Made by a program: the position numbers and the translations under genes. The notes beneath the pieces are model-generated. The model searched no databases. It was not told the origin of the DNA and saw only the letters and a program-made list of their open reading frames with translations. This document shows, one piece after another, positions 26,079-60,492 of a DNA stretch of 64,000 bases (position 1 is the stretch's first letter; each line of letters begins with the position of its first letter). The stretch is from Verrucomicrobiia bacterium (lineage in GTDB: Bacteria; Verrucomicrobiota; Verrucomicrobiia; Palsa-1439). Location of the stretch: the NCBI GenBank assembly GCA_035577545.1, contig DATLVI010000013.1, positions 67,778 to 131,777 of the forward strand, read 5' to 3'.

Positions 26079-27697
26079 TGAAGAACCGCACTCTCACCAT
26101 GGCACTTGGCGCGGCGCTGGTGCTGCTGCTTGCGTTCGTGTTCGTCTATGAAGGTTTCTGGGTTTGGGTGGTGGAGAATACGGTCGTGCCATCCAACAGG
26201 ATGCTGGTGTTGATTGCCAAGACGGGCAAGGAAATGCCGGCTGGCCAGATCATCGCCGAGCCCGGACAAAAAGGCGTGCTCCTCGAACCGCTCGGCCCGG
26301 GCCGTCACTTCGTCAATCCGTTCCTGTACGAGCGACAACTGAAAGATCAGGTGATCGTGTCCGGCGGCGAAGTCGGCGTGGTGATCACCAAGTTTGGCAA
26401 GGAACTTCCCGCGGGCGAATTCCTGGCCGGCCCCGGCGAGCGTGGCATCCAGCGCGAGGTCCTCTTGCCCGGCACCTATCGCCTCAATCCGTACGCCTAC
26501 GAGATTCGCGTGGTAAAAATGATCGAGATCGATCCCGGTTACGTGGGCGTCGTCACGGCGCGTTCGGGCAAACCCGCGCAGACGCAACTCGCCGGTCCGG
26601 GTGAACGCGGCGTGCAAAAAGTTGTCCTGCAGCCCGGCCTGTACCCGCTCAACCCCGAGGCGTTTTCGGTCGAGCGCATTGAGATCGGCTACAACCAGAT
26701 CACGATGGCCCACGCGGGCAAGCTCCCGCTGTCAAATACTTCGGGCCAGTTTGCCGGTAAGGAGAAACAGGCGCAAGCGATTGGTGAGGCGGCGGAACGG
26801 GCCCGGGTCCCCTCAGGTCAATACGGTATTCCTGTCCTGCCCGCGGTCACGTTTCCGTCGAGCGATGGGTTTGAGATCACTATCGACGTGACATTGCTCT
26901 GGCAATTGCTGCCGGAGGACGCCCCGTCGGTCGTAGCACGGTACGGCAACATCAAGAAGATCGAGGAGAACATCCTGATCCCCCAGATCAACTCCACGGC
27001 CCGCATCAAGGGATCCACATTCGGTGCGGTGGACTTCATCGTCGGCGACAAACGCGAGGAGTTCCAGCGGGCGTTCCAGGAAACCATCGAGACCACGCTC
27101 CAGGAGAAGAAGCTGCAGGTGGACCTTGCGCTTGTGCAAGACACGCTGGTGCCCGACAACATTTCGGGGCCGATCCAGGATGCGCGGATCGCCGCCGAAT
27201 GGAACATCACGAACGTGGAGAAGACGAAGACGGAAGCCAACAAGGCTCAGCTCGACGAGAACGTCGGCAAGATTCGCCAGATCGAACAGGTTGTCGAGTA
27301 CGAGACCCAGCGGTTGGAAGGGAACATTCACGCGGAACAGGAGAAACAGGTGAACGAGACCGCCGCGCAGACGCGGTTGCTCGTCGCCGAGTTGGCGCGG
27401 CAAACCGCAGCGATTCGCGCGGACATCAAACGCAAACTCGGCGGCGCGGAGGCGAAAGTGGTGGAGTTGAAGGGCAGGGCGGAAGGCGACGGTTACGCGT
27501 TACAGGTGAAAGCGGTCGGCACACCAGCGGACTACGCATTCTATCAATTCGCGCAACAATTGCCCGACCAGATGAAGCTCATGTTGATCTATGCCGGTGC
27601 CGGCACACTGTGGACGGACCTGGATAAGGCCATGAAGATCGCGCCGCTCGGCGTGCTGCAGGAGCTGCAACAAGGTCCGGCGCCCGCGAACAAATGA
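26075..27697 (+). CDS. SPFH/band-7 domain membrane protein, paralog of the upstream gene (same triplicated motif)
   Basis: GTG/ATG start overlaps the upstream TGA. 540 aa with TM helix, three GEVGVV..PGTYRLNPYAYE-type repeats, an SPFH region and a long coiled coil. Confidence 0.6.
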   Translation: MMKNRTLTMALGAALVLLLAFVFVYEGFWVWVVENTVVPSNRMLVLIAKTGKEMPAGQIIAEPGQKGVLLEPLGPGRHFVNPFLYERQLKDQVIVSGGEVGVVITKFGKELPAGEFLAGPGERGIQREVLLPGTYRLNPYAYEIRVVKMIEIDPGYVGVVTARSGKPAQTQLAGPGERGVQKVVLQPGLYPLNPEAFSVERIEIGYNQITMAHAGKLPLSNTSGQFAGKEKQAQAIGEAAERARVPSGQYGIPVLPAVTFPSSDGFEITIDVTLLWQLLPEDAPSVVARYGNIKKIEENILIPQINSTARIKGSTFGAVDFIVGDKREEFQRAFQETIETTLQEKKLQVDLALVQDTLVPDNISGPIQDARIAAEWNITNVEKTKTEANKAQLDENVGKIRQIEQVVEYETQRLEGNIHAEQEKQVNETAAQTRLLVAELARQTAAIRADIKRKLGGAEAKVVELKGRAEGDGYALQVKAVGTPADYAFYQFAQQLPDQMKLMLIYAGAGTLWTDLDKAMKIAPLGVLQELQQGPAPANK

Positions 27698-28263: not shown

Positions 28264-28887
28264 ATGAAGACCGCGGCGAAATCACTACTTGTTTTGGCAT
28301 GTTTACTGTCCAGCCATTTGGCGGCCGCTCTGGCCGCGACGAACACGATCCAGATTTTCAACTTCGATTTCGGTGCACTTCCGTCAACCCACATCAATCC
28401 AATCATCACGCTCGGCGACACGGTTACCTGGGTCTGGACGAATGGGTTTCACAGCACCACGGCGGCGCCGGGCCAGCTCGATAGTTGGGATTCCGGCGTC
28501 CACAGTCCGCCGTTTTCCTTCAGCCATACATTTGGCCAACTGGGTACTTTCAATTATTACTGCACGGTTCACGGTTTCAGTGCGGGCTGTCGGGGTGTTG
28601 GTGCGATGTCAGGAATTGTCACCGTGGTGCTCACCGGCTCGCCACCGTACCAGGTGACAGGGATTATGATGCAAGGCAGTGACATTCTTGTCACCTGGGT
28701 AACCGGCGGGATTTGCCAGACCAATATCCTGCAGCGGGCAACGGGTGCCGCTGACGGCAGCTACACCAACAATTTCACGGACATTTTCACCGTGGTCGGC
28801 GCTACGGGCAATACCACCAATTTTCTCGACGTCGGTGCGGCCACCAACTTTCCGTTCTGCTATTACCGCGTCAACGTTCCGCAGTAG
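28264..28887 (+). CDS. Secreted cupredoxin (type 1 blue copper, plastocyanin/azurin-like) fused to a conserved ~80-aa C-terminal domain
   Basis: Start at MKTAAKSLLVLACLLSSHLAAALAA. A Cu-ligand-like spacing: H in TNGFHST, then YYCTVHG..GAMSG (Cys, His, Met). The C-terminal 80 aa are ~55% identical to the C-terminus of the protein at 37995..39710, ending ..CYYRVNVPQ. Confidence 0.5.
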   Translation: MKTAAKSLLVLACLLSSHLAAALAATNTIQIFNFDFGALPSTHINPIITLGDTVTWVWTNGFHSTTAAPGQLDSWDSGVHSPPFSFSHTFGQLGTFNYYCTVHGFSAGCRGVGAMSGIVTVVLTGSPPYQVTGIMMQGSDILVTWVTGGICQTNILQRATGAADGSYTNNFTDIFTVVGATGNTTNFLDVGAATNFPFCYYRVNVPQ

Positions 28888-34204: not shown

Positions 34205-36076
34205 TTGTTCGCGCCGCTGCAACGTGGTTTGCTTTTCGGGATGCCAGCTCCCGCGACCATGCAAGCGAATACGCAATCTGACTGGACAGTGATCCGCCGT
34301 CTCCTGGGGTTGAGTTGGCGCTATCGAGCGGGTTGCATCAAGGTGTTCATCTACCAATTGATCCTGCTCGCGATGGGTTTGGCGGGGCTGGGGCTGACGG
34401 GCCTGGGGATTGATTTTGTTCGATGGCACATCCAATCAACGGCGACACCACCGCACTGGCCGTTCGGGCTGGCGCCGCCGACGTCCTGGGCGCCCATGAA
34501 GGTTATGATGGTCATTGCGGCCATCATGTTTACTTTCGCGATCCTGCGGGCAGCGCTGAATTACGTTTACAGCATTGCGGTCGCGGTATTGGTGGAGCGG
34601 TACATCGTCGTCGAGATGCGGGCGCAAGTTTACGAGAAACTCCAACGGCTCAGCTTTCGGTTCTACGACGCCAATGAGACCGGCTCGATCATCAACCGCG
34701 TCACTGGCGACTCGCGTGCGGTAGCGAACTTCGTCAACAACGTATTGATTCAAAGCATCATCATGTTGCTATCGCTGTTCGTGTATCTGGCGTACATGCT
34801 GACGATCCATGCGAAGCTGACGCTGGCGTGCCTGGCGGTGATCCCACTGTTGTGGGTGATTGCGGCGGTGTTCTCGCGCGTCGTGCAACCCGAATATGTC
34901 CGCAATCGCGAGTTGGTGGATCGGATGGTCCTTCACATTGCCGAAACCGCGCAGGGAATCCAGACGATCAAGGGCTTCGCCCGCGAGCGGGAGCGGTTCG
35001 CCATCTTCGAAGCCAGCAACGAAGCCGTGCGAGCGCAACAGCAGACCATCTTCTGGCGCGTGAGCCTGTTTGTACCATCGATCGGGATGCTGACGCAGAT
35101 AAGTTTGTTTGTGTTGCTGATCTACGGCGGGCACCTGGTCATCGCGGGCGAATTGCCGCTGGGCACCGGCATGGTCGTGTTTGCGGGACTCTTGCAGCAG
35201 TTCGCGGCGCAGATCGCAAATGTCGCACAGGTTGCCAACACCATCCAGCAGAGCCTCACGGGGGCGCGGCGCGTGTTCGAGGTGCTTGACGCGCCCATCG
35301 AAATTGTTAATCCGCCGAACGCGACCCGGCTGGCTCGTGCCAAGGGTGAGGTGCGATTCGAAGGAGTGAGTTTTGGGTACAACGCCGGGGACGATCCCGA
35401 GTTGCAGGAGGTCACCTTCGAGGCGCGACCCGGGGAGAGCATCGCCATTCTCGGCCCGACCGGGTCAGGCAAGACGACGTTATTGAGCTTGATCACGCGT
35501 TTCTACGACCCCCAGCGTGGGCGCGTGCTGGTTGACGGCACGGACGTGCGGAAGCTCGACCTCGACGATCTCCGTCGCAACGTGGGGCTGGTGTTCCAGG
35601 AGAGTTTTCTTTTTAGCAACACCGTCGCGGCCAACATCGCGTTCGGGCATCCGGATGCGACGCGCGAGGAGGTCGAGAAGGCGGCGAAAATCGCCGCGGC
35701 GCACGAGTTTATTGTGAACCTGCCCAAAGGGTACGACACGCTGCTCGGTGAAGGCGGCAAGGATTTGTCGGGCGGCCAGCGCCAGCGGCTGGCCATCGCG
35801 CGCGCGCTGTTGCTTGATCCCGCGATCCTGTTGCTCGACGACCCGACGGCGGCAGTCGATCCCGAGACGGAGAAGGAGATTTTGGAGGCGATTGAGAATG
35901 CCATGCGCGGGCGCACGACGTTCATGGTGGCCAACCGGATCAGCTCGTTGCGGCGCGCCGACCGCATCATTGTTTTGGAAGATGGGCGGATCGTACAGGT
36001 CGGCACGCATGAGGAACTGGTTCGCACCGACGGGCCGTACCGACGCACGGCGGAATTGCAGTTTGCCACCACATGA
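34205..36076 (+). CDS. ABC exporter, fused permease/ATPase (MsbA-like), subunit 1 of a heterodimeric pair
   Basis: 6-TM region followed by Walker A GPTGSGKTT, signature LSGGQRQRLAIARAL and Walker B ILLLDDPTAAVD. Confidence 0.8.
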   Translation: MFAPLQRGLLFGMPAPATMQANTQSDWTVIRRLLGLSWRYRAGCIKVFIYQLILLAMGLAGLGLTGLGIDFVRWHIQSTATPPHWPFGLAPPTSWAPMKVMMVIAAIMFTFAILRAALNYVYSIAVAVLVERYIVVEMRAQVYEKLQRLSFRFYDANETGSIINRVTGDSRAVANFVNNVLIQSIIMLLSLFVYLAYMLTIHAKLTLACLAVIPLLWVIAAVFSRVVQPEYVRNRELVDRMVLHIAETAQGIQTIKGFARERERFAIFEASNEAVRAQQQTIFWRVSLFVPSIGMLTQISLFVLLIYGGHLVIAGELPLGTGMVVFAGLLQQFAAQIANVAQVANTIQQSLTGARRVFEVLDAPIEIVNPPNATRLARAKGEVRFEGVSFGYNAGDDPELQEVTFEARPGESIAILGPTGSGKTTLLSLITRFYDPQRGRVLVDGTDVRKLDLDDLRRNVGLVFQESFLFSNTVAANIAFGHPDATREEVEKAAKIAAAHEFIVNLPKGYDTLLGEGGKDLSGGQRQRLAIARALLLDPAILLLDDPTAAVDPETEKEILEAIENAMRGRTTFMVANRISSLRRADRIIVLEDGRIVQVGTHEELVRTDGPYRRTAELQFATT

Positions 36077-37896
36077 AAGCGGCCCTGACACAAGTACGGC
36101 AGGAAGACCTGGACGAGCTGAACCTGCGTCCGCTGGAGATGCGGTTGATCTGGCGGATGTTGCGGTATACGCAGAAGCATAAGCGCAAACGCGATTGGCT
36201 GTTCGCGCTGGTGATTCTCCGGTCCATCCAATTGCCCGTGTTGGCGTGGCTGATTGGCGTGATCATCAACGGCCCGATTGCTCGACATGACGCGCGCGGC
36301 GTGGTGTGGGGTGCGGTGGGATTCTTGGCGTTCGCGGCGGTGACGCAGTTCTGCTTCCACTTTCGTCAACGGTTGGCGCTGGAGATGGGCGAATCGGTCC
36401 TGCAGGATTTGCGCCGCGATATTTTCCAACACCTGCTGAAGATGCCGATGAGTTTTTACAACCGGACGAAGATCGGGCGCATCATTAGCCGGTACACGTC
36501 CGATGCCGAGGCGATGCGTGTCGGCTGGCAGGACGTGTTTTTTGTGACGGCGGTGCAGGGCGGGCAGATGATTTGCGCCGCGCTGCTGATGTTGTGGTAT
36601 GACCGGGTCTTGTTTCTGGTCGTGCTGGCGATGGCGCCGATTTTGGGGGCGATGAATTACCGATTTCGCCGCACGCTCAGCAACGCGAACCGCAAGGTGC
36701 AGGAGAGTTGGAGCCGCGTCACGGCGACCATCGCGGAATCAGTCACGGGAATTCGCGTGACGCAGGGGTTCGTGCGGCAGGACGTGAATGCGGGGCTGTT
36801 TACCGACCTGCTGATGGACCACTCGGTGTACAATCTCGGTGTTGCACGGGCCACGGGCGTGTTTCTGCCGATGCTGGAATTGAACAGCCAGACGTTTACC
36901 GCGGTGTTGCTGATGGTGGGCGGGTATCGCGTGTTGAGCCCGGCCATTCACATGGACGTCGGCAACCTGATTCAGTTTTTCTTCCTCGCGAACCTGTTTT
37001 TCAGTTCCATTCAGCCGCTCGGCAATATGTACAACCAGGCGCTGGCGGCGATGGCGGGGGCGGAACGCGTTTTTCGTCTGCTCGACGCGAAGCCTGATTG
37101 GGAGGAACCGCCAACGGTGCGCGAGCTGCCGCGCATCCGGGGACGGGTCGAGTTCCGCGATGTCAGTTTCGGTTACGTGCCCGATCGGCTGGCGCTCAAT
37201 GATATGAATTTCGTGGCCGAACCCGGCCAGACCGTTGCGCTTGTCGGCCACACGGGTAGTGGCAAGAGTTCCATCGTTAATCTCATTACAAAGTTCTACC
37301 TGCCGGGGCATGGGGCGGTGCTGATCGATGGGTTCGACACGCGGGATATCCAGGGCGACTCGCTGCATCGCCAGATGGGCATCGTCAGCCAGCAGAACTT
37401 CCTCTTTAGCGGCACGGTGATGGATAACATCCGCTTTGGCCGGCCCGCGGCGACCGACGAAGAAGTCGTGGATGCCGTCCGCAAGCTGGATTTCCTCGAC
37501 GTGATCGGTTCGCTCTCGGCAGGGTTCGCGACGGCGGTGGGTGAACGCGGCGCGAATCTGTCGCTCGGCCAGCGCCAGCTGATTTGTTTTGCCCGCGCGA
37601 TGCTGGCCGACCCGCGCATCCTGATTCTCGACGAGGCGACCAGTTCCGTGGACGCCATGACCGAAGCGCGCATCCAGAAGGCGCTCGTGACGCTGTTGCA
37701 AGGCCGCACCAGTTTCGTCGTCGCCCACCGCCTCAGCACGATACGCCACGCCGACCTGGTTCTCGTGTTAAGGCAGGGCAAGATCGTGGAGCGGGGGACA
37801 CACACGCAATTGCTGGAAGCCAACGGCACGTATGCGGAGTTGTACCGGCAGTTCATCCGCGCGACGGGAGTGGCCCCGCGACAGGCGGCGGTTTAA
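36073..37896 (+). CDS. ABC exporter, fused permease/ATPase, subunit 2
   Basis: ATGA overlap with subunit 1. GHTGSGKSS, LSLGQRQLICFARAM and ILILDEATSSVD. Confidence 0.8.
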   Translation: MKAALTQVRQEDLDELNLRPLEMRLIWRMLRYTQKHKRKRDWLFALVILRSIQLPVLAWLIGVIINGPIARHDARGVVWGAVGFLAFAAVTQFCFHFRQRLALEMGESVLQDLRRDIFQHLLKMPMSFYNRTKIGRIISRYTSDAEAMRVGWQDVFFVTAVQGGQMICAALLMLWYDRVLFLVVLAMAPILGAMNYRFRRTLSNANRKVQESWSRVTATIAESVTGIRVTQGFVRQDVNAGLFTDLLMDHSVYNLGVARATGVFLPMLELNSQTFTAVLLMVGGYRVLSPAIHMDVGNLIQFFFLANLFFSSIQPLGNMYNQALAAMAGAERVFRLLDAKPDWEEPPTVRELPRIRGRVEFRDVSFGYVPDRLALNDMNFVAEPGQTVALVGHTGSGKSSIVNLITKFYLPGHGAVLIDGFDTRDIQGDSLHRQMGIVSQQNFLFSGTVMDNIRFGRPAATDEEVVDAVRKLDFLDVIGSLSAGFATAVGERGANLSLGQRQLICFARAMLADPRILILDEATSSVDAMTEARIQKALVTLLQGRTSFVVAHRLSTIRHADLVLVLRQGKIVERGTHTQLLEANGTYAELYRQFIRATGVAPRQAAV

Positions 37897-37994: not shown

Positions 37995-39710
37995 ATGAGG
38001 ACACGTGTAATAACCTTGGTTTGTGGTATTTGTTCGTTCATCACCTTTGCAATTTCGTCGGCGAGTCAGGCGCAGACCAATAGTTGGATTCAGTCCAGCG
38101 GCGCGTGGCAGGCTCCAGCGAATTGGTCCCTGGCCCAGGCACCCACCAACACGCAGTCACTGATCATCAGTAACGACCTAACCAAGATCATCACGATTGA
38201 TTCCACCACTTCTGGCAGTTTCTCCAATACATTGACCGTTACGGATGTGATTCTTTCCGCTCCTAATGGGGCCACAAACACTTTGGATTTGTCGAATGCC
38301 GGCACAAGCGCGCCGTTGTCGGTGCTAAACGACTTTATCGTTTCCAGTGGTGGGCTGTTGCGGCTGGCTGGCTCGGGCTTGTTGATGGAAACCAATGCAG
38401 CCGCTGCCGCGACGAATTCTGCCTCCGCCGTCCTGAGTAACGGAGTGTTGACCGTGGATGGGACACTGCTGATTAGCAGTAGCGGTGTCATAGCAGCCAA
38501 CACCGGAATTTACGTGGGGCTGGACACTAATGCGAACGGGCAGGTTGTCTGCGCGGGCGGACAGTTGCTTTTGACAAACACGCCGCCGTCAGCCATCGGG
38601 GTCAACGGCACCGGCCAGATGATTATCTCCAACGGTCAGGTGCAAACCGCGGCGAATTTCCTGTTCGTGGGTTCCGGTATAGGTTCGCAAGGGACACTGT
38701 CGGTGGCGGGAGGGAATTTCATTGGCTCGCCAAACGCGCGGTTGGTGATCGGCATGGAAACCGGGGCGGTGGGCGTGGTGACGGTGACCGGTGGAAGCAT
38801 AGTCATAACCAATTCCTTGATGACGCTGGTGGGCGGAGATGGCTCCGGGCAGCTTAATTTATTGGCCGGCACGAATATCTTCGGAGCGATGGAAGTCGGC
38901 GGTGATTCCGGCTCACAGGGCACGTTGACCGTGGCGGGGGGCGTTAACACGTTGCAGAGCGGGCTTTGCGTTGGCTCCAGTCAGGGCGCGACGGGTGTGG
39001 TGTGGCTGACCGGCGGGCAACTTGTGGCGACGAACTTAACGACTTCCATTGCATCGTGGGGTTACGGAGTCGCCACGGTGTCCAACGGTAGCTGGGTCGG
39101 AAGCACGATGTTGGTAGGCGTGCATGGCTTCGCAAACATTACGAATTACTATGGTTTTATTACTACAACAGGCCAGACGAGCTATGGCGCCGTCAATCTG
39201 GATGGTGGTTCGATGACGTTGTACTCGAAACTGGTGATTGGCAATTGCGGTACCGGCGGTGTCGGCGTGGTGGATGTTGCGGGCGGGAGTTTGTATGTGA
39301 CCAATGCGGCCCACAACGCCGTTATCGACGTACGCAATGGCCAATTGATACTCACGGGAGGAGCATCGCAGGTCGACAAGCTGGTGTTGACGAATAGTTG
39401 CAGCAGCTTCCTTCACACCGGGGGCACGCTTGTCGTTGGGAACGTGGTCCTCGACCCCAATGCTTTTCGTATTGTCTCGGTCACGCCGCAAGGAAACGAC
39501 ATCCTCATCACATGGTTGATGGCCCCGGGACAGACCAACACCTTGCAGGCTTCCACTGGGGACAGCAACGGCGGTTACGTCACCAATGGTTTCACCGACA
39601 TCTTCGTTGTGACGAATAACAGTACTATTGGCTCGTTGACGAACTACCTCGACGTCGGGGCAGCCACGAATTCGCCGGCGCGCTATTACCGCGCGCGCCT
39701 GGTACCCTGA
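37995..39710 (+). CDS. Secreted beta-helix repeat protein (autotransporter-associated beta-strand repeat type) with the shared C-terminal domain
   Basis: Start at MRTRVITLVCGICSFITFAISSASQAQT; the track ORF begins earlier, inside the ABC gene. Repetitive G/T/S-rich beta-strand repeats (GGSIVITNSLMTLVGGDGSG, GGVNTLQSGLCVGSSQGATG). The C-terminal 80 aa match the cupredoxin C-terminus (ends ..ARYYRARLVP). Confidence 0.55.
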   Translation: MRTRVITLVCGICSFITFAISSASQAQTNSWIQSSGAWQAPANWSLAQAPTNTQSLIISNDLTKIITIDSTTSGSFSNTLTVTDVILSAPNGATNTLDLSNAGTSAPLSVLNDFIVSSGGLLRLAGSGLLMETNAAAAATNSASAVLSNGVLTVDGTLLISSSGVIAANTGIYVGLDTNANGQVVCAGGQLLLTNTPPSAIGVNGTGQMIISNGQVQTAANFLFVGSGIGSQGTLSVAGGNFIGSPNARLVIGMETGAVGVVTVTGGSIVITNSLMTLVGGDGSGQLNLLAGTNIFGAMEVGGDSGSQGTLTVAGGVNTLQSGLCVGSSQGATGVVWLTGGQLVATNLTTSIASWGYGVATVSNGSWVGSTMLVGVHGFANITNYYGFITTTGQTSYGAVNLDGGSMTLYSKLVIGNCGTGGVGVVDVAGGSLYVTNAAHNAVIDVRNGQLILTGGASQVDKLVLTNSCSSFLHTGGTLVVGNVVLDPNAFRIVSVTPQGNDILITWLMAPGQTNTLQASTGDSNGGYVTNGFTDIFVVTNNSTIGSLTNYLDVGAATNSPARYYRARLVP

Positions 39711-39725
39711 GGAGCGAGAAACACA

Positions 39726-40466
39726 ATGCGCAACACTATTGAAAAGCGAGTACCGCGACACAGTCTGAACTCAGGAAAAGGTTTCACCCTGACGGAACTG
39801 TCAGTGCTGATGATGGTGGGGGCGATTTTGGCGAGCGTGCTCGTGGCCGATTTGAGCCAGACCCGGATGAAGCTTCTTCAGCAAGCGTGCGCGGCCAACA
39901 TGAAACACTGGGGGATGGCGATCGGGATGTATATGGACGACTACAACGGCGTGATTTTCTACGATGTAGGCGGGCTGCATTTTAGTGATAATAATTCTCC
40001 TCTTCAGCGCTATTTTGGGAATGGCTCTAACTCTTTTGCGACACTGCAGATGGTCCGTGCCTGTCCAGCGCGCGTAGGCATAGCCCCTTTCGGTCCGCAG
40101 AAAGGCTACGAGATACCGGTCGGCCAATTTCGCCACGGCCTTGTATACAAAGATGCGGATATAGCGGGCAGTCCATATTTTCGCGGCGGCAACTACTGGC
40201 CCGACCTGAAATCCGTGCCCGTTCCCGCGCAGTATCTCCTGATGACCGAATGCTATAATACAGTGCTATGCAATTCGTTATTGGTACGTGTCTCGTCGCC
40301 GGCCTCCGGATTTAATTCAGATCCATTACCGCCACTTGCCCGGCATAATAACGCGGTGAATTGCCTGTTCGGCGATTTTCATGTGGAACTGGTTTCGTCG
40401 AACAAGATTGCTCAGCAAGACATCGGCTGCGGCACGACCGGGAACCCATGGTTTAACTTGGATTAG
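39726..40466 (+). CDS. Prepilin-type N-terminal cleavage/methylation domain protein with a DUF1559/H-X9-DG-like C-terminus (pseudopilin-like)
   Basis: Class III signal GFTLTELSVLMMVGAILASV, then a globular domain ending HNNAVNCLFGDFHVE. Confidence 0.6.
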   Translation: MRNTIEKRVPRHSLNSGKGFTLTELSVLMMVGAILASVLVADLSQTRMKLLQQACAANMKHWGMAIGMYMDDYNGVIFYDVGGLHFSDNNSPLQRYFGNGSNSFATLQMVRACPARVGIAPFGPQKGYEIPVGQFRHGLVYKDADIAGSPYFRGGNYWPDLKSVPVPAQYLLMTECYNTVLCNSLLVRVSSPASGFNSDPLPPLARHNNAVNCLFGDFHVELVSSNKIAQQDIGCGTTGNPWFNLD

Positions 40467-40471
40467 CCGAC

Positions 40472-41194
40472 GTGGATAACGATCGGAAACATCGAGACGG
40501 TTTCACGCTGGCAGAACTGTCGGTACTGATGACGGTGGGGGCGCTATTGGCGAGCGTGGTCGTGGCTGATCTGAACCAGACCCGTACAAAACTCTTGCAG
40601 CAAGCGTGCGCGGCCAACATGAAGCACTGGGGAATGGCCTTCAGCATGTACGCGGATGATTACAACGGGACATTTTACTATAGCGTGAACGGGGCGTTTT
40701 TTAATGACGTCGGTACTCCGCTGCAACGGTATCTTGGGAATTCTTCCAACCCCGCGACAACAATACGCACGATAAGAGCCTGTCCAGCACGCATAGCGCA
40801 ATACCCTCTGCTGCCGGGCTACCAGATGCCGGTCGGCCAGTACCATAAGGGTCTTGTCTATAAGGATGCAGATGTGTTCGGTAGCCCTTTTTACGGAAAC
40901 GCAAACGCCCCCTATTGGCCCAATCTGAAGTCGGTGCCGCAGCCAGCTCAATATCTGCTGATGTTTGAATGCTATAACACGCTGCATTGCGGGCAGTTGG
41001 TAAGTAAGATGTCAAACCCAGGCGTATCCGCTGGACCCGTCGATCCGGTACCGCCGATTGCTCGTCATGGTGGTGGAGCGGTGAATTGCCTGTTCGGGGA
41101 TTTCCACGTGGAGTTTGTCTCCGCTACGACAATTACAAACCATGACGTGGGCTGTGGCACCGCGACCGGGAACGTGTGGTTTAATTTGGATTAG
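40472..41194 (+). CDS. Prepilin-type N-terminal cleavage/methylation domain protein, tandem paralog
   Basis: GFTLAELSVLMTVGALLASVVVADLNQTR.. and C-terminal RHGGGAVNCLFGDFHVE. About 60% identical to the upstream gene. Confidence 0.6.
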   Translation: MDNDRKHRDGFTLAELSVLMTVGALLASVVVADLNQTRTKLLQQACAANMKHWGMAFSMYADDYNGTFYYSVNGAFFNDVGTPLQRYLGNSSNPATTIRTIRACPARIAQYPLLPGYQMPVGQYHKGLVYKDADVFGSPFYGNANAPYWPNLKSVPQPAQYLLMFECYNTLHCGQLVSKMSNPGVSAGPVDPVPPIARHGGGAVNCLFGDFHVEFVSATTITNHDVGCGTATGNVWFNLD

Positions 41195-45763: not shown

Positions 45764-46678
45764 TCATCCCCCCGGAGATTTATCGGCCAAATGATCAATG
45801 CGATCCAGATTACGATCGACAGCCTCAAGATAAAGATTGCGTCCATTGCCGAAGTGGTGCGGTAAAACCTGGTGAACCTGCCCCCATTGTTTCTCGAGCA
45901 ACTGCCCTACACGACCTTCATAGAATGCCCGGGTCTGGCGCATCAGGTCTGTGGCGCCGCTGTAAGTCGTGATGCCGGCTTCCGCGAACTCGCGGTACAA
46001 CGCGGGCAACCGTTCGGGGTAATCATCAGCAGCCATTTGACCAAGCATGTCGCCGGCGCCGAGTGCGCTCCCGAGGAACCGTTCACGCTGGTCCCGAAAC
46101 TCAAGCTTTGAAGTGTCAACTTCGATGCCAGTGCAGTTAATGGCCAACTGCACGACGCGCACTTCGTCAGCGGTGACCCCCAGTGGCGGCAGAAACGTGG
46201 CGGCAAACTCGGCGCTGCGCTTCACATGAATCAGTGTGTACTTGGCCCCAGTGCCTTTGACATCACCAATCTGCTTAATGTAGCCCGTGTCATGCAATAA
46301 GATGGCGGCAACAGCGAGTTCAAAATCCCGGGCGCTGACCGTCGGCAATTGACCGCTTTTGATTTGTCCATCCAGGATTCGCAGCGTCGTAACGGTCGCC
46401 TGGCAAGTGTGTGCCAGGTCGTGGAATTTCGTGTCACAAGCCTGATATCCCGGAAAGCGACCGGCGAAAAGCTCGCCTACTTTGTTGAACACCGCGACCA
46501 GGAACTCCGTGCTGCGACCAGGGAAATCCTCGCTGAAAAGACTGCAGACGAATTGCAACGTCTCCGGTGCGCCTCGAAAATCAAGCAAATGGCCAATCGG
46601 CTTTTGGTCGGACATGAGTATCACAGGCTCGCCAATCCAGTGTTCCGATGCAACTCTAAAATCTCCCGCAATCGTCAC
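45764..46678 (-). CDS. HD-domain metal-dependent phosphohydrolase
   Basis: 304 aa. HD motif context ..FHDLAH.. and ILLHDTGY. Confidence 0.55.
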   Translation of the reverse strand: MTIAGDFRVASEHWIGEPVILMSDQKPIGHLLDFRGAPETLQFVCSLFSEDFPGRSTEFLVAVFNKVGELFAGRFPGYQACDTKFHDLAHTCQATVTTLRILDGQIKSGQLPTVSARDFELAVAAILLHDTGYIKQIGDVKGTGAKYTLIHVKRSAEFAATFLPPLGVTADEVRVVQLAINCTGIEVDTSKLEFRDQRERFLGSALGAGDMLGQMAADDYPERLPALYREFAEAGITTYSGATDLMRQTRAFYEGRVGQLLEKQWGQVHQVLPHHFGNGRNLYLEAVDRNLDRIDHLADKSPGG

Positions 46679-48180
46679 AGGCGAAAGAGCGCCTGGAGTT
46701 GGTTGCGGAAACCAGCCGTATATTGCCGTTGCTCCTCGATGGCAAGCGGCGTGGTCCCCCGGGCTGCCAGCTTCCCCTCAGTTTCCAATTTGCGTTTTGC
46801 CAGCAACTCGCTGATTTCCTGCAACACCCGGGGTTGTTGCCGGAAGACCTCCGCCAGCATTGCGCGATCGAGTTCCGCGACTTCGCAATCGGCGGTGGCC
46901 GTAACGGTGGCCGACCGTTTCTCGCCGGTAAGCAATGACATCTCGCCAAAACAGGCGCCGGAATGGAGCGCGGCCAGGTGCGTGCGGGCGCCGTTGTTTG
47001 TGACCGACACATCCGCCGTGCCAGTCATCAACACAAACATCGAGTCTCCGTTCGCATCTTGTTGGAGCATTTTTTCACCACGTCCAAATCGGTGAATCCG
47101 CACGCCAGCCAGTAGCGTCTGCAGTTGCGGATCTTCCACGGAGCGGAACAGCGAATGTTGTCGGAGCGCGGTGCGCACCGCTTCGAGGTGCGGCTCGGTC
47201 GTTAGAGCGGGAGGCGCTTGCATGTAGATCGTGCGCGTGGGATACGGGATCTTGATGTGGTGGCGCTGCAACTCATACCAGATGTTGGTGCGCACGGCAT
47301 CTTCCACCTCGTTGTACACGGTGTGATCGTCCATCCAGTACCGGAGTTCATACACGTTGGCAAAATCTCCAAAGTTTTTGAGGTAGACCTGCGGAGGAGG
47401 ATTCGCGAGCACATGCTCGACGGTAGCGGCTGCATGCGCCAGAACGTCCTTTACGCGGTTGGGAGGCTCTGCCTGGTCAATTCCCAACTCCAACCGCATG
47501 GCGTGCTTGCGAACCGGGTAATAGAGATTGGCAATGGTCTGACGGGCAATCTGGCTGTTGGGCACGTCCAGCCACAAGTCGTCGTTCGTCCGCACGCGGG
47601 TGGATCGCCAGCTCATCTCCATGACTTCGACGTGCCGATGCTCAAAGAGCAGCCAATCCCCGACCTTGAATGGCTTCTCGAAATGGAGCACACAGCCCGC
47701 AATCACATTGGCCAGGAGATCCTGGGCCGCCAAACCAACCGCCAGCGCAAGAATGCCGGAGCCCGCGAGCAGGCCGGGGATTTGGATGTGAAAACCAACG
47801 CTGAGGATCAACAGAACGGCTGTGCTCAGAATCGCCAGTGCGACCACGTCGCGCACCACGCGAGGAACTACAATCTTGCGTTTCTGCTCGAAGTAGAGTT
47901 CCCACACCATCCGCCGGGTCAACGAAACCGCCAGCAGGGCAGACAGCAAAACCGTGGCGGCTCCGAGGGCGTCCCGCCACCACATGGTGGGCGCGGTGAG
48001 GCTCGTTGCGATATAGAGGGCCAACGCGCCACTGAACATTTCATAGAGCACACCCCAACGCATCCCCACACGCTGCTTCAACCACCGTCCCCCGGCCAGG
48101 AGCACAAGGTACGCCACCAGCGCGGTCACCGGCAGCAACACGCCTACTTCGCCAGCCGTTCTCCAATTCAAGACAGCCAT
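46675..48180 (-). CDS. Mechanosensitive channel (MscS family) fused to a C-terminal cyclic-nucleotide-binding domain (bCNG-type)
   Basis: Start at the internal Met MAVLNWRTAGE (~48180; the ORF upstream is Arg/Ser-rich junk). TM helices, then an MscS core (GDWLLFEHRHVEVMEMSWRSTRVRTNDDLWLDVPNS). C-terminal CNB domain (FGRGEKMLQQDANGDSMFVLMTG..FGEMSLLTGEKRSATVTA). Confidence 0.7.
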   Translation of the reverse strand: MAVLNWRTAGEVGVLLPVTALVAYLVLLAGGRWLKQRVGMRWGVLYEMFSGALALYIATSLTAPTMWWRDALGAATVLLSALLAVSLTRRMVWELYFEQKRKIVVPRVVRDVVALAILSTAVLLILSVGFHIQIPGLLAGSGILALAVGLAAQDLLANVIAGCVLHFEKPFKVGDWLLFEHRHVEVMEMSWRSTRVRTNDDLWLDVPNSQIARQTIANLYYPVRKHAMRLELGIDQAEPPNRVKDVLAHAAATVEHVLANPPPQVYLKNFGDFANVYELRYWMDDHTVYNEVEDAVRTNIWYELQRHHIKIPYPTRTIYMQAPPALTTEPHLEAVRTALRQHSLFRSVEDPQLQTLLAGVRIHRFGRGEKMLQQDANGDSMFVLMTGTADVSVTNNGARTHLAALHSGACFGEMSLLTGEKRSATVTATADCEVAELDRAMLAEVFRQQPRVLQEISELLAKRKLETEGKLAARGTTPLAIEEQRQYTAGFRNQLQALFRL

Positions 48181-48253
48181 CACGGGGCCGCATACTAGCC
48201 GCGGCTCGTACCGGTGGCAAAGCTTTACTCTGCGCGTCAGGGCCAGTATAAAC

Positions 48254-50458
48254 ATGCGCGAGCGGGGGCTCGTGATGACAAAGTGCATTGGTGACGGACG
48301 ATGTCGATTATTAATCCGGTTGGTTGCCTTGCTTTGGCTGGGCACCGCATCGTTATTTGCGGATCCCGCGACCGCTGGCAACACCAATGGCCAGATTGCG
48401 GCCTTGATCAAGTTGTCCGCAGCCTGCCAATCGTCCGGACAGCATCCGCGCGCGGAACAGCTTCTCCAGGAAGCGGTCGATCTCGCCAAATCATCAGGCG
48501 ATCGCAATGCGTTGATTTTGGCGATGAGTAAACTGGGCGCCGCTTGCACGATGACGCGGCAGTTGAACCGCGCAGAGACATTGTTGCGCGAGAGCCTGGA
48601 GATGGCGCGTGCCGATGGAAACCTGCAAATGACAGGCGCCATCCTGAACGATCTCGGCAATGTGTTGGGATTGCGCCAGAAGTATGCGGAGGCACTCGAT
48701 GTATTTCAGCAAAGCGTTGCCGAGGCTCGCAAAGGCGGCAATAAACTGCTCATCGCCCAGGCCCTGTGCAACGCAGCCTCAACAGCCGCGCGGGCTGGCA
48801 TGATACAGCAAGTCGACACATTGAACGCAGAGGCGCTCGATCAGATCGCGCAACTCGACGCATCGCACGAGAAAGCATACTTATTCATCACCGCCGGTGA
48901 GACTGATGCTGCCCAACAGCATTCGCAGCGCGCGCAACAATCTTATCAACATGCGCTGGACGTTGCCGAAGCGATTGGCGACCACGGCGCTGCCAGTTAC
49001 GCTCTCGGGTATTCCGGCGAACTTTACGAGCGCGACAAGCAGCTTGATCAAGCATCGTCCTTTACCCGCCGGGCGATTTTTGAGGCGCAACAAGCCCGGA
49101 TGCCGGAAGCATTGTACCGCTGGGAATGGCAATCCGGCCGGCTCCTGAAAAGGCAAGGTGAGACGGAGCAAGCAATGGCAGCATACCGGCGTGCGATCCA
49201 AACCCTGCAACCGATTCGGCACGACATTTCTCTCGGCAATGGCAACGCGACGACCCACGTTTCGTTTCGCGAGGCGGAAGGACCATTGTACTTCGAAATG
49301 GCTGACCTGCTACTCCAACAAGCCGGTCATTCGAAAGATCCACAGCCGCTGCTGCTGGAAGCGCGTGATACGGTGGAGCAACTTAAGGCGGTTGAGCTGG
49401 AGGATTATTTTCAGGATGAGTGTGTCAATGTTGCGCGCGCACGGACCAGGTCACTCGAGGCCGTGGACGGCCACACGGCAATCGTGTACCTGATCCCGCT
49501 TGGCACGCGCACGGAAGTGTTGGTGGGCCTGGCATCCGGCCTGCACGACTTCACGGTGGACGTTGGAGTGGACACGCTGGCGGCGGAAGTCCGGGAGTTT
49601 CGGCGCAACCTGGAAACACGCACGTCATATGGCTACCTCGCTGAAGCGCGACAGCTTTACGACTGGATCATCCGCCCGATACACGGCCTATTGATTGAGA
49701 ACCGCATCGACACGCTGGTGTTCGTGCCGGACGGCGCGCTACGCACAATCCCATTCGCCACCTTGCATGATGGAAAGAAGTTTTTGATCGAAGAATACGC
49801 AGTAGCGGTGGCACCGGGTCTTTCGCTGATTGAACCGCGCCCGATCCAACGGGCGAACGCGCGTCTGCTATTGGGCGGATTATCGGCATCCGTGCAGGGG
49901 TATCCGTCCTTGAATTTTGTGCCTGCTGAACTGCATGATATCGAACCGATGTATCCCAGTGAGACGTTGTTGAACAAAGACTTCGTGTTGCCGTCGATCA
50001 CCGGGAAACTTACCAAGGAACAATACAGCATCGTCCACATTGCCTCGCATGGTCAGTTCAATAGCGATGCGCACAAAACGTTTGTACTGACCTACGATGG
50101 GAAATTGACATTGGATGATCTGGAAGCGTTGATTCGTCCCAGCCAGTATCGCGGCAAACCGGTGGAACTCCTGGTGTTGAGCGCGTGCCAGACCGCGTCC
50201 GGCGACGATCGCGCCGCGCTGGGGTTGGCCGGCGTGGCGATCAAGGCCGGCGCGCGCAGTGCGCTGGCCTCGCTGTGGTTCGTGAACGACCAATCTACCT
50301 CTGCATTGATTTCCGAATTCTATCACCAGTTGCGCGAATCGCCATCCGTCTCAAAAGCCCGGGCGTTGCAAGCGGCCCAAATCAAGATGCTGAACGACCC
50401 ACGCTACCGGCATCCGTGCTATTGGGCACCGTACTTGATCATCGGGAATTGGCTGTGA
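48254..50458 (+). CDS. TPR-repeat + CHAT-domain (caspase-like protease) protein, secreted or periplasmic
   Basis: 734 aa. N-terminal hydrophobic signal. TPR-like repeats (ALILAMSKLGAACTM.., ALDVFQQSVAEARK..). C-terminal CHAT domain with His/Cys dyad context IVHIASHGQF and LLVLSACQTASGDD. Confidence 0.7.
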   Translation: MRERGLVMTKCIGDGRCRLLIRLVALLWLGTASLFADPATAGNTNGQIAALIKLSAACQSSGQHPRAEQLLQEAVDLAKSSGDRNALILAMSKLGAACTMTRQLNRAETLLRESLEMARADGNLQMTGAILNDLGNVLGLRQKYAEALDVFQQSVAEARKGGNKLLIAQALCNAASTAARAGMIQQVDTLNAEALDQIAQLDASHEKAYLFITAGETDAAQQHSQRAQQSYQHALDVAEAIGDHGAASYALGYSGELYERDKQLDQASSFTRRAIFEAQQARMPEALYRWEWQSGRLLKRQGETEQAMAAYRRAIQTLQPIRHDISLGNGNATTHVSFREAEGPLYFEMADLLLQQAGHSKDPQPLLLEARDTVEQLKAVELEDYFQDECVNVARARTRSLEAVDGHTAIVYLIPLGTRTEVLVGLASGLHDFTVDVGVDTLAAEVREFRRNLETRTSYGYLAEARQLYDWIIRPIHGLLIENRIDTLVFVPDGALRTIPFATLHDGKKFLIEEYAVAVAPGLSLIEPRPIQRANARLLLGGLSASVQGYPSLNFVPAELHDIEPMYPSETLLNKDFVLPSITGKLTKEQYSIVHIASHGQFNSDAHKTFVLTYDGKLTLDDLEALIRPSQYRGKPVELLVLSACQTASGDDRAALGLAGVAIKAGARSALASLWFVNDQSTSALISEFYHQLRESPSVSKARALQAAQIKMLNDPRYRHPCYWAPYLIIGNWL

Positions 50459-52377
50459 AGTTGTCTCCGCGGTTGGTGGGTTTGTTGATCGTCCTCGCGG
50501 TGTTCTTCTCCGCACTTTTGGTCCGACGGCTGGGGTGGTTACAATTCCTCGAGTTTCGCGCCTACGATTTCTTCATCCAACAGCAACCGAAGGCCGTAAC
50601 AAGTGACCCGATCGTGTTGGTGGAGATGACCGAGAAGGACATTCAAAGCCCGACGCTGGATTATCCGATTACCGACGATAAGCTGGCGGAATTGCTGAGC
50701 ATTTTGGAGGCGCAACAACCCGCAGTGATCGGACTGGACATCTGGCGCGACATCCCGGTGCCGAAAAACGGCGTGCACTTTCGCCAGCTCAACGAGACGT
50801 TGCTCGCGCACACCAATATCGTTGCCATTTTCACCCTGGGAGGGATCGGGCCGCCGCAGGCGCTGGCAGCGAATCCCGAACGACTGGGGTTCAATGACAA
50901 TCTGCCCGTCGACGACCGGGTGGATAAAACGACACCGAAAGTCCGGCGCGGCCTGCTGATTGGCGATTCGAAATCCGGGCAGAGCTTCGATTCGATCGCG
51001 TTTCGTGTGGCAGAAGTCTATTTGGAGCGGCAGGGCATTGTGCCACGATTCGATCCTGCCGATCCTGACTCGTTTCAACTGGGCAAGACGCGACTGCGGG
51101 CATTCGAGGCAAACGACGGCGCGTACGTGGGCGCCGACGCTCGCGGCTGGCAAATACTGCTCGACTTCAAGTGTCCGGACGAGTTCGCCCGACATTCGGT
51201 CGGCGAGGCGCTCGCTGGCGGAATCCCACCTGGCAGCCTGCGCGGCAAAATTGTGTTGGTGGGGATGAATGCGCCAAGCGTCTCTGACGAGCGCGTCACG
51301 CCGATTCGTTCCAATCATCATGGTATCGAGGTGCAGGCGCAGATTATTCATCAATTGTTGCGCGCGGCACTCAACGGCGAGAGACCGCTCCGGTTCTGGA
51401 AGGACTGGGAAGAGGATGCCTGGATGTTGTTGTGGTGCCTGGTCGGCGGGGCGATCGGTTACTGGATCCGGTCTCCGTGGCGGTTCCTTGCGGCCATTGG
51501 GCTGGTACTGCTCGCGCTGGGCTGGATCGCGTGGCGATCATTTCTCGCGGGTTGGTGGATTCCGTTGATGGCCCCGGTGGCAGCCTGCCTGCCGGCAGCG
51601 GCATTGATGACGTCATACATTTCCTTTGAAGAACGAAAACAGCGCGGCCAACTCATGCAGTTGTTTTCCAATCAGGTGTCACCCGACATCGCGCAGGCGC
51701 TTTGGGAACAGCGGCATGAGTTCCTGGCCGGCAATCGCCCGCGTTCACAAAAGCTAATCGCTACCGTTCTCTTCACCGATCTCAAAGGCTTTTCGGGCAC
51801 CTCGGAAGGACTGGAGCCTGCGCAGTTAATGGACTGGCTTAATGAATACATGGAAGCGATGGCCAACGCCGTGATGGCTGAACAAGGCGTGGTCGAGAAA
51901 TACATCGGCGACTCGATCATGGCCGTTTTTGGCGTCCCGATCGCGCGCGTGTCGCAGGAGCAGATTACGCAGGACGCCCGCAACGCCATTTGCTGCGCCC
52001 TGGCCATGCGCAAAGAAATGGAGCGGCTCAATGCGGAGTGGAAACAGCGAAATATGCCGGTCTGTAGTATGCGCATCGGCATTCACACCGGGCCGCTGGT
52101 GGCCGGTAGCCTCGGCAGCGTCGAGCGACAGGAGTACACGGTCATCGGCGATGCGGTGAACACGGCATCACGGTTGGAAAGCTTCGATAAGGACACCGGC
52201 TCCAATGACAGCGTCTGCCGCATCCTCATCAGTGAAGCAACGAAACTGTTATTAGGTGAAGAGTTTGAGCTGAGCCCATTGGGTACAATGAGCTTGAAAA
52301 ACAAGAGTGAGAAAGTCATCATCCATCGCGTGGTTGGGCGAGCCAGCCGCGAACCCGGAGGTCAGCGTGAGAATTAA
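50455..52377 (+). CDS. CHASE2 extracytoplasmic sensor domain fused to a class III adenylate/guanylate cyclase
   Basis: GTG start overlaps the CHAT gene stop (GTGA). N-terminal TM + CHASE2 region, 3 TM helices, then a cyclase domain (ATVLFTDLKGFSGTSE, IGDSIMAVFG, IGIHTGPLVAGSLGS..YTVIGDAVNTASRLES). Confidence 0.7.
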   Translation: MKLSPRLVGLLIVLAVFFSALLVRRLGWLQFLEFRAYDFFIQQQPKAVTSDPIVLVEMTEKDIQSPTLDYPITDDKLAELLSILEAQQPAVIGLDIWRDIPVPKNGVHFRQLNETLLAHTNIVAIFTLGGIGPPQALAANPERLGFNDNLPVDDRVDKTTPKVRRGLLIGDSKSGQSFDSIAFRVAEVYLERQGIVPRFDPADPDSFQLGKTRLRAFEANDGAYVGADARGWQILLDFKCPDEFARHSVGEALAGGIPPGSLRGKIVLVGMNAPSVSDERVTPIRSNHHGIEVQAQIIHQLLRAALNGERPLRFWKDWEEDAWMLLWCLVGGAIGYWIRSPWRFLAAIGLVLLALGWIAWRSFLAGWWIPLMAPVAACLPAAALMTSYISFEERKQRGQLMQLFSNQVSPDIAQALWEQRHEFLAGNRPRSQKLIATVLFTDLKGFSGTSEGLEPAQLMDWLNEYMEAMANAVMAEQGVVEKYIGDSIMAVFGVPIARVSQEQITQDARNAICCALAMRKEMERLNAEWKQRNMPVCSMRIGIHTGPLVAGSLGSVERQEYTVIGDAVNTASRLESFDKDTGSNDSVCRILISEATKLLLGEEFELSPLGTMSLKNKSEKVIIHRVVGRASREPGGQREN

Positions 52378-60433: not shown

Positions 60434-60492
60434 GATAGGACTCCTCAGTCATGAAAGTGAAACCCGGCGCCAATCGAAAAGAGGAGGAGCAA

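Follow-up and report, generated by a model that had tools for sequence, protein, structure and literature searches.

Three genes on a 64 kb stretch of DNA from a Verrucomicrobiia bacterium (contig DATLVI010000013.1, positions 67,778 to 131,777; from here: the window) encode secreted proteins of unrelated function which share a C-terminal domain of about 80 amino acids (aa). A first-pass annotation had proposed this domain, from here called the tail, as a candidate sorting or anchoring tag. All three tails were found where that annotation had placed them, each ending at the stop codon (Table 1). Verrucomicrobiia are abundant polysaccharide degraders of soil and peat, and to our knowledge little is understood of how they bring their many secreted enzymes and adhesin-like proteins onto the outer membrane or past it.

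The first protein bearing the tail (carrier) is a beta-helix repeat protein with the signal peptide MRTRVITLVCGICSFITFAISSASQAQ. It matched the NCBIfam model TIGR04393 (T5SS/PEP-CTERM-associated repeat) with 23.9 bits at a cut-off of 23. Its mechanically called open reading frame (ORF) opens at position 37584; position 37995 is the likely start, and the segment upstream of it, which overlaps an ABC transporter gene, is probably not translated. The second carrier is a blue-copper protein (cupredoxin) with the signal peptide MKTAAKSLLVLACLLSSHLAAALAA and the copper-site region YYCTVHG...M, which gave matches to amicyanin, halocyanin and plastocyanin models, all of them weak. In the third carrier, a multidomain glycoside hydrolase with the signal-peptide-like N-terminus MKILKCRALIWFGVALQLTCLLASA, Pfam models place a GH57 domain, CBM53/CBM25 and two canonical FN3 domains ahead of the tail; the Pfam fn3 matches lie at residues 892–967, outside the tail. 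All three carriers possess plausible N-terminal signal peptides.

Further copies were collected from two sources. An exhaustive profile search was run over 1.84 billion representative proteins (matching proteins are given as P numbers), and 79 loci of 6–12 kb (L numbers) were obtained by scanning a single genome of each species for a pattern, with loci chosen via internal motifs of the domain only. Orthologues of the beta-helix protein are encoded at L001, L006 and other loci. A cupredoxin orthologue bearing the same tail was found at L075, and cupredoxin fragments with the tail are P0171 and P0180.

Relatedness and fold of the tails

The tails of the beta-helix protein and the cupredoxin are 49% identical over 80 aa (BLASTP, E=4e-22); the similarity claimed in the first-pass annotation was thus real, and its estimate of about 55% identity slightly too high. 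The same annotation had described the GH57 tail as a more divergent copy, which agrees with 30% identity over 82 aa to the beta-helix tail (BLASTP, E=2e-7), while the pairwise match between the cupredoxin and GH57 tails was not significant (BLASTP, E=0.34). Its list of common motifs (I.W, a conserved Trp, FTD, LD..AT.. and a terminal RYYR) was correct as well, and an alignment of 14 tails contains the invariant columns W21, N45, D67, T72, N73 and Y79. Searches with the individual tails in a word index yielded 44, 4 and 2 short proteins, which were used as alignment seeds only. We rejected the view of these matches as free-standing small proteins, since they represent truncated gene calls or pieces of orthologues.

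The beta-helix tail scored 133 bits with the hidden Markov model (HMM) A1, with the match ending 1 aa short of the stop. When A1 was iterated on the loci the family was not widened, and copies of the GH type required a separately seeded HMM. Three results link the GH57 tail to the other two. An HMM of 143 terminal database copies picked this tail up with 19.1 bits (E=5.5e-5), as its sole other match among the six translated frames of the window; an HMM seeded from GH-type and tandem-type copies alone reached the copies ending in the residues RLVP after two iterations; and the AlphaFold2 model of the GH57 tail (predicted local distance difference test (pLDDT) score of 79.7) agrees with that of the beta-helix tail in its six strands and in their order. 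Because of this HMM match, this convergence and the shared strand order, the GH57 tail is supported as a distant member of the same superfamily, belonging to a divergent subfamily without the RLVP end. No fourth copy was found in the window when an HMM of the three tails was compared with the six-frame translation.

None of the 14 tails was matched at E≤10 by any model of Pfam-A (2025 copy) or NCBIfam (release 20), including the Pfam fn3 HMM (PF00041). The AlphaFold2 model of the beta-helix tail is a six-strand sandwich (pLDDT 86.9). Foldseek returned nothing significant from the PDB (best E=0.039, template modelling score about 0.5). By sequence, the tail is related to solved FN3 domains: when the tail profile was compared with all PDB sequences, the sole relatives were 3mpc, an Fn3-like domain of Clostridium thermocellum (E=0.0014), and 5g56, which holds the same Fn3 module within CtXyl5A. 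The tail shares the motifs of the classical bacterial Fn3 signature in the alignment to 3mpc, namely TW..PG, the C strand, TNY(L/T)D.GaaT and YY.V. In 3mpc the aligned part extends to residue 74 of 103, at the F strand; beyond this point the tail itself has 4–5 residues left.

A complete FN3 sandwich has the seven strands A, B, C, C', E, F and G, while both AlphaFold2 models are six-stranded. Tandem units of the domain measure about 71–77 aa and are too short to hold a G strand. From the six predicted strands, the length of the tandem units and the stop of the alignment at the F strand we strongly infer that the tail, which appears to have an FN3-like fold, lacks the G strand. It is an uncatalogued FN3-like domain family of about 80 aa and six strands. 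Neither the fold class nor the idea of a C-terminal sorting domain is new; what Pfam and NCBIfam lack is the family, its apparent architecture without a G strand and its RLVP terminus. In the searchable literature, nothing relevant turned up on the end motif or on C-terminal sorting in Verrucomicrobia.

C-terminal position and the RLVP end

The first-pass annotation had named two findings that would speak against a tag, namely a restriction to the three proteins or a lack of C-terminal bias, and the opposite was observed in both cases. The profile search matched 2,555 cluster representatives at E≤1e-3 and 1,236 at E≤1e-10, and the single related metagenome-assembled genome (MAG) palsa_1439 contains at least 20 carriers. 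The position of the domain was tallied in the best 150 proteins except the seed match P0031, which leaves 149 newly returned ones. In 145 of these 149 representatives the domain lies within 8 residues of the C-terminus; 143 terminal copies contrast with 12 strong internal ones. In the six-frame scan of the 79 loci, 114 of 119 domain matches end 0–7 residues before a stop codon, and the exceptions are extra upstream tandem copies plus one protein with 24 residues beyond the domain.

As far as sampled, the family is confined to Verrucomicrobiia. Verrucomicrobiia MAGs of peat, bog and soil origin account for nearly all of the 79 loci, of which L001 is the closest, with 87% identity in the tail. 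L021 (CAWIWK010000058.1), with two tail carriers, is on a contig filed in a MAG labelled Acidimicrobiales; its DNA downstream of the stop codon is about 90–94% identical to that of the Verrucomicrobiia loci L044 and L066, and the label is probably a binning error.

Repeat-rich genes of beta-helix carriers were frequently found to be frameshifted or mis-called in MAGs. Many of the tail-matching database "proteins" among P0001–P0044, 63–149 aa in length, are truncated calls of long beta-helix carriers, and some of these truncated calls sit on contigs of more than 100 kb. In several loci the carrier is split over two frames (L010 4755..6255, L011 4326..6255 and L044 6280..7723).

Terminal copies end in ...R(Y/F)YRVRLVP-stop. 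After the residues YR of the last strand, the following positions are conserved as V in 73%, R in 97%, L in 90%, V in 78% and P in 92% of terminal copies, with the stop codon following in 96%. At the same positions, the twelve internal copies have R in 42%, L in 50%, V in 25% and P in 33%. The conservation of the last residues is therefore specific to terminal copies. The C-terminal residue is Pro in 132 of the top 149 representatives, and 94 end in exactly RLVP, in a sample whose search profile itself contained RLVP-like ends. Among the distinct carriers of the locus sample, 98 of 110 end in Pro and 67 of 110 in RLVP. Divergent subfamilies that were missed by the main HMM also end in Pro (for example FYRIQISAP, FYRVDISLP and FYRLRISLP), following the pattern ...FYR(I/V/L)x(I)S(L/A)P. 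The last strand is conserved, and it is amphipathic in that Y, V and L form one face and Arg residues the other.

A mobile DNA cassette or a 3' repeat might also create shared gene ends, and was rejected as an explanation, since the similarity stops at the stop codons. Downstream of these codons, only 26 of 6,105 sequence pairs were similar; the examples inspected join loci of different related MAGs, which is consistent with orthologous loci. The lack of nucleotide similarity past the stop codons therefore indicates that conservation acts on the protein and not on a DNA cassette. In 111 carrier genes from the loci and the window the tail is followed by TAG in 61, TGA in 28 and TAA in 22 cases, as raw counts without a genome-wide background.

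Cargo and gene neighbourhood

Across 83 full-length carriers scanned from P0050–P0157, 54 Pfam families were matched, including apiosidase/GH5, GH16, PKD, LamG, RCC1, malectin, NHL and F5/8-C, and the window carriers add GH57 and the blue-copper protein to this list. The beta-helix repeat protein constitutes the largest cargo class, with 60 carriers in 50 loci, and TIGR04393 was matched by 28 of the 83 carriers. The NCBIfam choice-of-anchor families GloVer, Q and C occur as cargo in one carrier each. By a crude hydrophobicity test, at least 76 of 100 carriers with complete 5' ends start with a signal-peptide-like N-terminus, and several of those failing this test have clear signal peptides by eye or non-ATG starts.

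A bacterial TSP3-type linker, D.DGDG...GTDP, is located ahead of about half of the terminal copies. A DGDG-type motif lies just upstream of the tail in 71 of 137 terminal copies and the Pfam model TSP3_bac was matched by 25 of the 83 carriers. The full TSP3 linker is absent from all three window copies.

Carrier genes often lie in tandem. Up to five carrier ORFs were found in one 12 kb locus (L052, two of them cut by the locus ends), and L033, L054, L056, L044 and L012 contain three carriers each. The same loci contain seven PEP-CTERM ORFs recognized by a regular expression, all of them distinct from the carriers, and five of the seven adjoin carrier genes (Table 1). This clustering, together with the neighbouring PEP-CTERM genes, suggests islands of secreted-protein genes. 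An NHL/SMP-30-like repeat protein encoded in the window has no C-terminal tag. Related proteins end in PEP-CTERM (L024 432..1424 and L020 3389..3817), and the same repeat occurs inside a 2,081-aa, 5'-truncated tail carrier of L028.

Table 1. Carrier genes, tails and other features mentioned in the text. Positions refer to the window unless preceded by a locus number.
Feature	Position	Strand	Length	Remark
Carrier 1, secreted beta-helix repeat protein	37995..39710	+	571 aa	ORF listing, translation
Beta-helix tail, DPNAFRIVSV...ARYYRARLVP	39453..39707	+	85 aa	Stop codon 39708..39710; translation
Carrier 2, secreted blue-copper (cupredoxin) protein	28264..28887	+	207 aa	ORF listing, translation
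Cupredoxin tail, ends ...FCYYRVNVPQ-stop	28636..28884	+	83 aa	Translation; HMM 112.7 bits
Carrier 3, secreted multidomain glycoside hydrolase	2928..6668	-	1246 aa	Pfam matches
GH57 tail, divergent, ends ...IQRFYKIHASY-stop	2931..3170	-	80 aa	BLASTP, HMMs, AlphaFold2, translation
Two consecutive SPFH/Band-7 genes	24555..27697	+	~510-540 aa	Immediately upstream of carrier 2
Two ABC exporter half-transporter genes	34205..37896			Directly upstream of carrier 1
Prepilin-like paralogue 1	39726..40466	+		Directly downstream of carrier 1, in tandem with paralogue 2
Prepilin-like paralogue 2	40472..41194	+
Cyclic nucleotide (cNMP)-binding MscS-type channel	46675..48660			Opposite strand, just upstream of CHAT gene
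CHAT protease-like protein with TPR repeats	48254..50458	+		Overlaps start of CHASE2 cyclase gene
CHASE2 sensor adenylate/guanylate cyclase	50185..52377	+
TpsB transporter (ShlB/FhaC with POTRA)	53096..54787	-		No tail
TpsA-like protein, N-terminal TPS domain	54687..57131	-		No tail
NHL/SMP-30-like repeat protein	60451..61599	+		No C-terminal tag
PEP-CTERM ORF adjoining carrier	L007 1701..2558
PEP-CTERM ORF adjoining carrier	L022 424..1299
PEP-CTERM ORF adjoining carrier	L023 3404..4294
PEP-CTERM ORF adjoining carrier	L024 336..1421
PEP-CTERM ORF adjoining carrier	L073 6277..7281

The neighbouring genes were clustered using 652 ORFs from the 79 loci plus the window. The recurrent groups consisted of the beta-helix cargo class, prepilin-like genes (6 loci) and small syntenic groups. 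In the window, the GH57 gene is next to a gene for a GT4 glycosyltransferase, while the surroundings of the cupredoxin gene encode paired SPFH proteins, a Clp-like AAA ATPase and a CLC channel. The two prepilin-like paralogues behind the beta-helix gene carry the N-terminus GFTL(T/A)ELSVLM and a C-terminal ...H(x9)DFHVE motif; they had no Pfam match at E≤1e-4, and it is genes similar to them that recur in the 6 loci.

Function of the tail and comparison with known systems

We consider a shared C-terminal targeting or retention tag as the most likely function of the tail, with a probability of roughly 0.5. In its position, in the numbers of unrelated signal-peptide-bearing cargo proteins and in the presence of choice-of-anchor cargo the tail shows the operational features of a C-terminal tag. 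Some of the cargo families have PEP-CTERM or autotransporter ends in other settings. In a clade of uncultured soil and peat Verrucomicrobiia the domain is attached, often via a TSP3-type calcium-binding linker, to the very end of many unrelated Sec-exported proteins. The mechanism we envisage is the following. After Sec-dependent export the cargo would fold, and an envelope component specific to the lineage would recognise the folded domain together with its free, conserved ...R-Y-Y-R-V-R-L-V-P-COOH end. This component would retain the cargo on the cell surface or else guide it through the outer membrane. This reading starts from direct observations, namely the family, its fold class, the C-terminal bias, the conservation of the end in terminal copies only, the diversity of the cargo and the signal peptides, and from these we infer recognition by a partner and a cellular destination of the cargo.

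Several points weigh against a tag. The domain is not obligately terminal: the 12 strong internal copies and the few tandem arrays (P0125 with 4 units and P0077 with 6) are what an ordinary FN3-type module would be expected to show. In the window, RLVP is missing from the end of the GH57 copy, and the cupredoxin copy has NVPQ in its place. In the clustering of 652 ORFs, no recurrent non-carrier neighbour was fit to be a secretion, processing or receptor partner, and the genes flanking the three window carriers are housekeeping or unrelated genes. The profile of the top-150 sample has a slight bias toward RLVP-like ends, which is mitigated by the locus sample. The signal-peptide calls are those of a crude hydrophobicity heuristic, and the absence of the G strand was deduced from the sequence alignment and the strand count. 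Hence, the sorting or anchoring function proposed in the first-pass annotation was borne out in part. Position, the RLVP end restricted to terminal copies and the diverse cargo speak for it; its support is only partial because the tail is an FN3-like module with internal and tandem copies, the GH57 copy lacks the RLVP end and a co-occurring set of secretion or processing genes, which the annotation had suggested to look for, was found neither among the neighbours in the 79 loci nor among the genes of the window.

The internal and tandem copies and the negative search for partner genes among the neighbours also fit an ordinary FN3-like accessory module, serving as a spacer, a stabiliser or for ligand or substrate binding, which domain shuffling would have fixed at C-termini in this lineage and which would not be recognised by any sorting or anchoring machinery. 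The classical bacterial Fn3 domains of glycoside hydrolases have this same fold and an E-F hairpin with the same motif, TNY.D.G..T...YY.V, and weak cross-matches to ordinary FN3/Ig arrays were obtained (P0064, P0082 and P0088). A passive unit is however not expected to lie 1–2 residues from the stop in about 96% of cases, nor to keep RLVP-COOH only when it is terminal. It is also hard to see a single substrate role that would fit cupredoxin, GH57, GH16, RCC1, NHL and beta-helix cargo. Moreover, the GH57 enzyme already holds two FN3 spacers recognised by Pfam, and its tail is unrecognised. We regard the accessory module as the main alternative to the tag, if a rather unlikely one.

In a more specific form of the tag hypothesis, the tail would mark cargo for an envelope-targeting pathway of Verrucomicrobiia not described so far, in which the fold without a G strand and its invariant free -YRVRLVP-COOH end would be captured by an outer-membrane or surface receptor, possibly via donor-strand or edge-strand complementation. 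This is a speculative proposal and we consider it unlikely. If true, each cell would move enzymes, redox proteins and adhesins by the dozen across the outer membrane or attach them to its surface, covalently or not, and the pathway would be a functional counterpart in the PVC superphylum of the Bacteroidota type IX secretion system (T9SS) with its C-terminal domain (CTD).

The tail might alternatively be a self-association domain that forms homo- or hetero-oligomers or a surface layer by pairing of F-strand edges, to which the TSP3 linker would add calcium-dependent rigidity. As the tail appears to lack the G strand, one edge of its sheet would be open; the amphipathic last strand is conserved, the DGDG-type motif and TSP3_bac matches are frequent and the carrier genes are clustered in tandem. 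Tandem arrays in one chain, as in P0125, argue for a unit that is stable alone, however, and the same evidence fits docking to a dedicated receptor. We judge self-association to be quite improbable.

It is highly improbable that the tail is the secretion signal of a known system, that is a T9SS-type CTD, a type I secretion system (T1SS) signal for the adjacent ABC exporters or a signal for two-partner secretion (TPS), to which the two ABC exporter genes next to the beta-helix gene, the TpsB/TpsA pair in the window and a size and beta-sandwich resembling those of T9SS CTDs might point: the ABC neighbourhood is not conserved across the 79 loci and the carriers have Sec signal peptides, for which reasons the exporters were rejected as a T1SS for the beta-helix protein; the window TpsA has an N-terminal TPS domain and no tail; and the T9SS CTD was absent from both model matches (E≤10) and structural matches. 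T1SS substrates lack Sec signal peptides, and TPS substrates carry an N-terminal TPS domain.

If the tail is a tag, it defines a candidate surface and secreted proteome straight from sequence and makes envelope targeting in Verrucomicrobiia testable. It could serve as bait for the component that recognises it and possibly as a portable display or secretion tag in the phylum. Even as a structural module only, a model of the domain would annotate thousands of "hypothetical" proteins and would help to flag frameshift-truncated gene calls.

Compared with the bacterial Fn3 domains 3mpc and 5g56, whose alignment with the tail stops at the F strand, the tail then ends in RLVP-COOH, and in contrast to canonical Fn3 modules, which are internal spacers, it is terminal in about 96% of cases. 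Another partial resemblance concerns NF042425, the NCBIfam model for the Amuc_1099 family of pilus-like system proteins from Akkermansia, which gave partial matches in 34 of the 83 carriers and no match on the three window proteins. These matches span the TSP3 linker and the first ~25 tail residues (A-B strands), corresponding to profile positions ~96–177 of 321 (e.g. P0051 176..252 and P0162 7..55), and in ten individually scanned carriers all scores but one were under the 50-bit cut-off. Membership in the Amuc_1099 family was rejected, the matches being partial, mostly sub-threshold and limited to the linker and first strands. The partial matches to the Amuc_1099 family and to MtsD result from the shared linker and first two strands, and judging from this sequence similarity, Amuc_1099 may contain a related linker-plus-sandwich unit.

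The tail is not PEP-CTERM, LPXTG or a T9SS CTD, none of which the first-pass annotation had recognised in it. PEP-CTERM consists of a motif of ~25 aa with a transmembrane helix and a basic cluster, and this signature is absent from the three window tails, which have neither a hydrophobic helix nor a basic tail. PEP-CTERM/exosortase signals are present in these genomes too, on cargo of the same classes (T5SS/PEP-CTERM-associated, GloVer and NHL repeats), but the tail, unlike PEP-CTERM, is a folded soluble domain without a hydrophobic helix. LPXTG motif, hydrophobic segment and basic tail are likewise absent from all three tail sequences.

In its behaviour the tail is like the T9SS CTD. Both are beta-sandwich domains, about 80 aa long, that occupy the very C-terminus of many unrelated Sec-exported proteins within a lineage; a genome encodes many carriers, and their genes are dispersed rather than grouped with any machinery. 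The T9SS CTD is a seven-strand Ig-like sandwich, in contrast to the six strands predicted in the tail. The T9SS CTD models (type A, TIGR04183/PF18962, and type B, TIGR04131/PF13585) matched neither the 14 tails at E≤10 nor the full-length window proteins, and no T9SS CTD was among the top structural matches of the tail. PorU/PorV/SprA/PorK-N-type genes were found neither among the annotated ORFs of the 64 kb window nor among the recurrent neighbours in the 6–12 kb loci, and we know of no T9SS in Verrucomicrobiota. The dockerins of cellulosomal enzymes are similar to the tail in being C-terminal modules on diverse secreted enzymes. In the carriers a calcium-binding D.DGDG repeat frequently precedes the tail, which might act by docking to a scaffold. 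The tail is a beta-sandwich, whereas a dockerin is an EF-hand-like helical pair, and we know of no cohesin-like partner for the tail. By analogy, then, the tail would resemble the T9SS CTD or the dockerin in function, while being homologous to neither.

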